Shown here one piece after another: positions 59,420-59,645 of a stretch of DNA of 64,000 nt. A program made the translations under genes and the position numbers. The stretch lies in assembly GCF_016026235.1 (NCBI RefSeq), contig NZ_CP065613.1. The stretch is one strand, 5' to 3'. The DNA is from Escherichia coli. Lineage in GTDB: Bacteria; Pseudomonadota; Gammaproteobacteria; Enterobacterales; Enterobacteriaceae. A model generated the notes under the pieces. That model was not told the origin of the DNA, ran no database searches, and saw only the letters and a list, made by a program, of their open reading frames with translations. Within the stretch, counting starts at the first letter, position 1. Every line of letters begins with the position of its first letter.

Positions 59420-59645
59420 CGACCCGTAGGCCGGATAAGGCGCTCGCGCCGCATCCGGCAATCAATGCCTGATGCGACGCTGTCGCGTCTTATCAGGCCT
59501 ACAACTATTGCCGACCTGTAGGCCGGATAAGGCACTTGTGCCGCATCCGGCAATCAATGCCTGATGCGACGCTGTCGCGTCTTATCAGGCCTACAACTGT
59601 TGCCGACCTGTAGGCCGGATAAGGCGCTCGCGCCGCATCCGGCAG
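59420..59645. repeat. BIME cluster: tandemly repeated REP palindromic units between rhaD and rhaA
   Basis: about 90-bp unit (…atcaatgcctgatgcgacgctgtcgcgtcttatcaggcctacaact.ttgccgacctgtaggccggataaggc…gccgcatccggca) present in 2.5 copies. Confidence 0.85.

Follow-up and report, generated by a model that had tools for sequence, protein, structure and literature searches.

A BIME-2 array of REP palindromes in the rhaA–rhaD spacer of Escherichia coli FDAARGOS_943

Introduction

What is the palindromic tandem repeat that separates rhaA from rhaD in this Escherichia coli genome, and does it do anything for the operon in which it lies? The stretch of DNA analysed here (64,000 nucleotides, referred to below as the window, with all coordinates counted from its first letter) is 100% identical to the genome of E. 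coli FDAARGOS_943 (NZ_CP065615.1). In the RefSeq annotation of that identical sequence rhaD (58558–59382), rhaA (59649–60908) and rhaB (60905–62374) are all encoded on the minus strand, which leaves a 266 bp rhaA–rhaD intercistronic spacer at 59383–59648, so that the array takes up most of the spacer. The annotation agrees with the placement given in a preliminary description of the same DNA, made from the letters alone, in which a repeated BIME/REP unit was set between rhaD and rhaA of an operon transcribed in the order rhaB–rhaA–rhaD on the minus strand.

Results and discussion

Anatomy of the array

Tandem Repeats Finder reports 59420–59644 as one array with a period of 92, 2.4 copies, 93% matches, no indels and a score of 415, and a separate repeat search divides it into a first copy at 59420–59511, a second copy at 59512–59603 (95% identical to the first) and a partial third copy that begins at 59604. 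These values bear out the preliminary description, which had put the repeat at 59420–59645 with a unit of about 90 bp, about 2.5 copies and paired REP palindromes in each unit. The self-alignment that it proposed as a check on tandem periodicity likewise came out in its favour: the array is 94% identical to itself at an offset of 92 and 97.6% identical at an offset of 184, whereas in 1000 shuffled versions the highest identity reached at offsets of 20–149 was 37% on average and never above 49%. Five positions (59425, 59442, 59445, 59447 and 59507) distinguish copy 2 from copy 1, three of them lying in the apex of one palindrome, and the partial third copy differs from the first by a single mismatch.

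Each 92 bp unit consists of one y-type REP and one z2-type REP in the inverted orientation, and the five REPs of the whole spacer run y–z2–y–z2–y. The literature search returned no printed y or z2 consensus sequences; the two labels follow the published nomenclature, together with the listing of the K-12 homologue as BIME-2. The features of the spacer, in the order in which the mRNA would be read, are as follows.

59649..59651, minus strand: rhaA stop codon TAA (RefSeq annotation of the identical sequence; the translation ends ...LSQRG*)
59644..59648, minus strand: 5 nt gap from the rhaA stop codon to the first paired REP base, ACACT in the mRNA sense (sequence)
59610..59643, minus strand: y-type REP no. 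1 in mRNA order, 'outer' variant, GCCGGATGCGGCGCGAGCGCCTTATCCGGCCTAC, 34 nt (predicted hairpin, -21.3 kcal/mol)
59595..59609, no strand: tail-to-tail linker, 15 nt, AACTGTTGCCGACCT on the plus strand (sequence)
59559..59594, plus strand: z2-type REP, 36 nt, GCCTGATGCGACGCTGTCGCGTCTTATCAGGCCTAC on the plus strand, inverted relative to the y REPs (sequence, folding)
59552..59558, no strand: head-to-head short linker, 7 nt, AATCAAT (sequence)
59518..59551, minus strand: y-type REP no. 2, 'inner' variant, apex GCACAAGTGC (sequence, folding)
59503..59517, no strand: second tail-to-tail linker, 15 nt, AACTATTGCCGACCT (sequence)
59467..59502, plus strand: z2-type REP, second copy (sequence)
59460..59466, no strand: second short linker, 7 nt, AATCAAT (sequence)
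59426..59459, minus strand: y-type REP no. 3, 'outer' variant, rhaD-proximal (sequence)
59383..59425, minus strand: rhaD 5' leader, 43 nt, with a Shine–Dalgarno-like AGGAA, predicted to be largely unpaired (sequence; minimum free energy fold of the spacer)
59380..59382, minus strand: rhaD start codon ATG (RefSeq annotation; the translation starts MQNITQSW)

Class membership and the K-12 counterpart

REPs have been defined as imperfect palindromes of 30–40 nt with a conserved GTAG/CTAC foot, BIME-2 elements as y and z2 REPs that face opposite ways across a short linker and are repeated in tandem in a number that varies between strains, and BIME-1 elements as single copies with a shorter z1 REP and a long linker (PMC3333891). 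All five elements of the present array are imperfect palindromes of 34 or 36 nt, and each ends in CCTAC (GTAGG on the opposite strand). They are extragenic, the array lying wholly inside the rhaA–rhaD spacer, and highly repeated: the REP 3' arm TTATCMGGCCTAC has 11 matches in the window against 0.08 expected, five of them being those of this array, and a query that included the array found a median of nine matching places per E. coli genome. The y and z2 REPs alternate in orientation across short linkers of 7 and 15 nt, the copies stand in tandem at a single locus (2.4 copies, 93–94% identity), and the number of units differs between strains, with spacers of 82, 174, 266, 358 and 450 bp forming a ladder among the 59 genomes described below. 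The inverted doublet structure of a REPIN is also present. A BIME-1 element, known also as RIP or RIB, resembles the rha array in that a y REP is paired with an inverted REP, but it combines y with the shorter z1 as a single copy with a long L linker containing an IHF site, whereas the rha array has a 36 nt partner, linkers of 7 and 15 nt and a tandem arrangement.

Each unit matches the Rfam model RF02564 (naRNA4) on the plus strand over its full length (1–77 of 77) with 77 and 76.6 bits, above the gathering score of 59.5, and the matches in the mRNA sense (56.5 and 53.2 bits) fall below it. Since this model has the Y+Z2 unit of REP325 as its basis (PMC4550694), such a match tells us only that a y+z2 unit is present.

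The homologous array of K-12 MG1655 lies at the same locus, aligns unit by unit with that of FDAARGOS_943 and shares with it the 92 bp y+z2 unit, the outer and inner y variants and the linkers; it differs in having nine REPs in 4.4 units and a spacer of 450 bp, compared with five REPs in 2.4 units and 266 bp here, and is thus longer by exactly 184 bp, or two units. This K-12 array corresponds to REP299a–i of EcoCyc, which was the only large REP cluster in the study concerned to lie within an operon, namely rhaBAD, and which was predicted by RAREFAN to be a RAYT-associated REPIN (bioRxiv 10.1101/2024.07.17.603846). In the K-12 lineage it has also been listed as a 401 bp BIME-2 named 'rhaA>-rhaD>' (PMC6379681, Table DS3). 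A full-text search of the literature for rhaA and rhaD together with 'repetitive extragenic palindromic' found nothing. The K-12 counterpart has already been named and classified and is contained in genome-wide gyrase and mobilome datasets. The BIME/REP identity proposed in the preliminary description is upheld by the full-length RF02564 matches and by the listing of the K-12 homologue both as BIME-2 and as REP299a–i, and there can be hardly any doubt that the repeat is a BIME-2 array, the FDAARGOS_943 allele of K-12 REP299a–i.

Variation of unit number between strains

That E. coli strains differ in their number of BIME-2 units has been known since the 1990s. The rha locus was compared between strains by searching 5,426 complete E. 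coli genomes with the flanks alone, a query in which 500 bp each of rhaD and rhaA were fused, and 5,402 genomes matched. From the ranking, 60 rows evenly spaced from top to bottom were taken and 59 were used; strain BW25113, which gave only a partial rhaD match and which carries an engineered rhaBAD deletion, was left out. One representative of each size class was read and the remaining genomes were assigned by length alone, and the following class counts describe RefSeq genomes rather than a population sample.

Spacer 82 bp: 14 genomes, 1 REP
Spacer 174–176 bp: 10 genomes, 3 REPs
Spacer 184 bp: 2 genomes, 3 REPs, +10 bp leader variant
Spacer 266 bp: 6 genomes, 5 REPs
Spacer 276 bp: 2 genomes, 5 REPs, +10 bp leader variant
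Spacer 358 bp: 5 genomes, 7 REPs
Spacer 450 bp: 9 genomes, 9 REPs
Spacer 460 bp: 2 genomes, 9 REPs, +10 bp leader variant
Spacer 241 bp: 7 genomes, alternative element
Spacer 328 bp: 1 genome, alternative element with internal duplication
Spacer 148 bp: 1 genome, alternative element, likely assembly artefact

One REP is thus found in 14 of the 59 genomes, three in 12, five in eight, seven in five and nine in 11, and an alternative element in nine. The preliminary description had held that copy number varies between strains and had asked for exactly this comparison, which shows steps of exactly 92 bp from one to nine REPs. In the representatives read, the +10 classes all share a different rhaD leader. 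Strains H55–H62 have equal flank scores and carry arrays of different sizes, and the O157:H7 genomes in the sample (three of three) have a single array size. Evidently no particular number of units is required, because strains do well with one to nine REPs or with the alternative element after the first REP.

Two further kinds of allele were encountered. In a three-REP allele (L012, 500–675) the second y REP is a hybrid in which the y-type arms GCCGG...CCGGC enclose the z2 central stem-loop GCGACGCTGTCGCGTC, which looks like the outcome of recombination or gene conversion between adjacent REPs of different type. In the alternative allele (the 241 and 328 bp classes) the first y REP is kept and is followed by an unrelated GC-rich palindromic element, found at full length in 787 of the 5,426 complete E. 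coli genomes (~15%). The ends of this element are of the CCCTCACCCC...GGGGTGAGGG type (L005, 500–740; L007, 500–827; L006, 500–647) and a core of ~57 bp occurs at two to three other sites per genome; it may resemble the 'box C' repeat. The 328 bp allele (L007) contains an 87 bp internal duplication of the element, and the 148 bp case (L006) is the same alternative allele spoiled by a long poly-C run, which is probably an assembly error.

Outside the complete E. coli genomes, a cross-species scan with the 20 nt junction between the rhaA stop codon and the REP gave one true match, in Escherichia sp. MOD1-EC7003 (cryptic clade), and the E. coli species representative was not among the matches returned. 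At the same site, after an rhaA 3' end that encodes ...EKAILSQRG*, this strain carries 6.8 units (~14 REPs; L014, 9027–9710, NZ_PTRE01000032.1). The array stops within a z2 REP, 62 bp short of the contig end, and a megablast search of complete E. coli genomes gave no match for the tail that follows; insertion of, for instance, an IS element into the REP is a possible cause. A second junction match, in a Desulfobacter MAG (L013, 428–447), was rejected as due to chance, the surrounding sequence being unrelated.

Folding and conservation of the palindromes

Folded singly, the REP hairpins contain an internal mismatch and are predicted at -20 to -21 kcal/mol, and the entire spacer in the mRNA sense has a minimum free energy of -142 kcal/mol (z = -8.5 relative to shuffled sequences), in a fold that leaves the rhaD leader largely unpaired. 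Relative to the two outer y REPs, the inner one carries a G-to-A and a C-to-T change on opposite sides of the apex stem, so that pairing is kept. Among 28 y REPs from ten alleles the apex pair is G–C in ten, A–T in 15 and A opposite C in two, with the y/z2 hybrid as the remaining one; the z2 REPs of ten alleles are identical in all 18 copies. In every one of the 12 alleles read the first y REP is kept, its stem begins 5 nt past the rhaA stop codon and the string ACACTGCC(G/T)GATG is present.

Compared with K-12 after removal of two units, the array is identical at 224 of 225 positions. Over the same comparison (window 58558–60908), rhaD differs at 4.6% of all positions and 11.3% of third-codon positions, and rhaA at 2.5% and 6.9%, respectively. 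One change in 225 against a third-codon difference of 7–11% indicates that the REP sequence is held much more tightly than the neighbouring synonymous sites, and this conservation fits selection on structure, a constraint imposed by RAYT recognition or gene conversion among REPs. The sequence of the REPs is thus tightly held while the number of units is free to vary.

Proposed origin and function

Taken together, we consider it very probable that this is a BIME-2 array in rhaBAD with the origin and the function typical of its family. When rhaBAD is transcribed, the REPs would fold into stable hairpins directly after the rhaA stop codon; by blocking 3'-to-5' exonucleases, these are proposed to let the rhaB–rhaA segment of the message outlive that of rhaD. 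Stabilization of upstream mRNA, the effect raised for rhaA in the preliminary description, is an accepted general role of REPs, and by analogy it suits the geometry at rha, in which hairpins of about -20 kcal/mol are predicted to start 5 nt past the rhaA stop codon and lack a T-run. In an intrinsic (Rho-independent) terminator a T-run comes after the GC-rich hairpin; the array does not have this form, and a search of 59000–60000 on either strand returned zero terminator-like sites. A close likeness is to the REPs between malE and malF, the classic mRNA stabilizer reported by Newbury et al. (1987, Cell), which are also intercistronic hairpins directly after the upstream cistron without a T-run; the malE–malF cluster has fewer REPs and its effect was shown by experiment, whereas an effect at rha is proposed by analogy.

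Two other effects on expression may be added. REPs not more than 15 nt from a stop codon stall terminating ribosomes and lower translation, according to the summary in PMC12306157 of the work of Liang et al. (2015), and because the first REP at rha lies within 15 nt of the rhaA stop codon it may slow terminating ribosomes and lower the output of RhaA. The array may also attenuate read-through of transcription into rhaD, BIMEs having been credited with transcription attenuation by Espeli et al. (2001) as cited in PMC4550694. On the DNA itself the array is proposed to be a preferred gyrase site, as its K-12 homologue is. Our literature search found no experiments on rhaBAD mRNA decay, on the RhaA:RhaD ratio or on polarity, and we regard the chance that modulation at the mRNA level is the main effect of the array at the rha locus as about even. 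As to origin, units would be gained or lost through unequal recombination or slippage involving the 92 bp direct repeats, or through the activity of the RAYT (TnpA-REP), whose action on BIMEs has been modelled (PMC3333891).

The alternative that survives best is that the array is a neutral or selfish repeat, a set of REPINs amplified by a RAYT transposase or by slippage, in which the first REP at most affects rha and the copy number drifts; we hold this to be a real possibility that nonetheless falls short of probable. It would account for the range of one to nine REPs with no dominant class among the 59 genomes, for the ~15% of genomes in which an unrelated element replaces everything after the first REP, for the different array sizes in the equal-flank-score strains H55–H62 and for the prediction that K-12 REP299 is a RAYT-associated REPIN (bioRxiv 10.1101/2024.07.17.603846). 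It is less easily reconciled with the single change in 225 positions beside differences of 7–11% at neighbouring synonymous sites and with a stem kept by compensatory change, although gene conversion, or a constraint from RAYT recognition, could explain both without any function for the host. Given the freely varying copy number, a neutral repeat is plausible for the variable part of the array, and a neutral origin and the family-type function favoured here are not mutually exclusive.

A second alternative places the role at the level of DNA, where the array would act independently of transcription as a strong gyrase site or a topological barrier between rhaA and rhaD, any effects on the mRNA being incidental. 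A preferred DNA gyrase site would be expected here from the nine-REP allele of the K-12 lineage, in which cleavage sites have been mapped under four conditions: four with ciprofloxacin (Cfx), two with rifampicin plus ciprofloxacin (RifCfx), one with microcin B17 (Micro) and none with oxolinic acid (Oxo) (PMC6379681, Table DS3), so that two of them persist under rifampicin. According to the literature, BIME-2 elements are enriched in gyrase cleavage sites, with a preference for y REPs, and such elements have been reported at borders between supercoiling regions (PMC10592627). Against this, the literature also shows that only a subset of BIME-2 elements is cleaved, and the cleavage data belong to the nine-REP allele of the K-12 lineage and not to the five-REP allele. 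A gyrase site at rha is dispensable, because one-REP and alternative-element alleles are common. We judge a primarily DNA-level role to be rather unlikely, and note that such a role is compatible with the family-type explanation preferred above.

It has also to be considered whether the number of y+z2 units serves as an evolvable dial, in which steps of 92 bp would tune, lineage by lineage, the RhaA:RhaD ratio or rhaBAD polarity under selection rather than drift. This appears improbable, and nothing in the present analysis supports selection on copy number.

The two units might instead be read as genes for naRNA4-like small RNAs, nucleoid-associated RNAs that bind HU. Both RF02564 matches on the plus strand exceed the gathering score, naRNAs derive from Y+Z2 units of REP325 (PMC4550694), and REP325 (naRNA1–6, yjdM–yjdN) resembles the rha array in its tandem Y+Z2 hairpins with a short linker and in the 77-bit full-length match to the model. 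The rha array differs from REP325 in lying at another locus and inside an operon. The sense that passes the threshold is antisense to rhaBAD, the only known transcript, while the matches in the mRNA sense stay below it; no promoter-like site was found in the spacer or adjoining the array; and RF02564 is in effect a generic model of a BIME-2 unit. This reading is accordingly very improbable, and although Rfam-based annotation will label the units as 'naRNA4' genes antisense to rhaBAD, such a label is not evidence of a small RNA.

The chance that the array is coding or an assembly artefact is negligible: a 331-residue open reading frame (58558–59553) does begin at a TTG within the array and continue into rhaD, and short plus-strand frames overlap the array, but these are ruled out as coding because 92 is not a multiple of 3 (92 mod 3 = 2), so that the frame shifts with every copy-number allele whereas the RefSeq rhaD start is constant in all alleles (59382 here), and a one-off misassembly is excluded because the five-REP size recurs in eight of the 59 sampled genomes.

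The rha array is accordingly a textbook BIME-2 in an ordinary allelic state, of little importance beyond correct annotation. The 92 bp ladder makes the rhaA–rhaD spacer convenient as a length-polymorphic marker and, because this is an unusual large REP cluster in an inducible operon, its alleles with one, three, five, seven and nine REPs form a convenient natural series, useful for studying the effect of REP number on mRNA stability within an operon and on polarity.

Other observations in the window

The remaining matches to the REP 3' arm in the window comprise two inverted pairs, 11473/11511 (spanning 11473–11523) and 43557/43605 (spanning 43557–43617), and two single matches at 8020–8032 and 22818–22830; none of these places in the window reaches the naRNA4 gathering score. 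Other Rfam matches at gathering level lie at 7860–7978, 9007–9260, 16038–16145 and 48681–48739 and are to Spot 42, CsrC and ES222 on the plus strand and to SECIS_3 on the minus strand. A carbohydrate porin gene (56799–58193, plus strand) adjoins rhaM here, whereas the next annotated gene in K-12 is frvA. Across the rhaD/rhaA flanks (window 58884–60148) only FDAARGOS_943 itself reaches at least 99% identity, all of the other ~5,400 complete E. coli genomes compared being at most 97.2% identical, which points to a divergent lineage or to recombination in the rha region.
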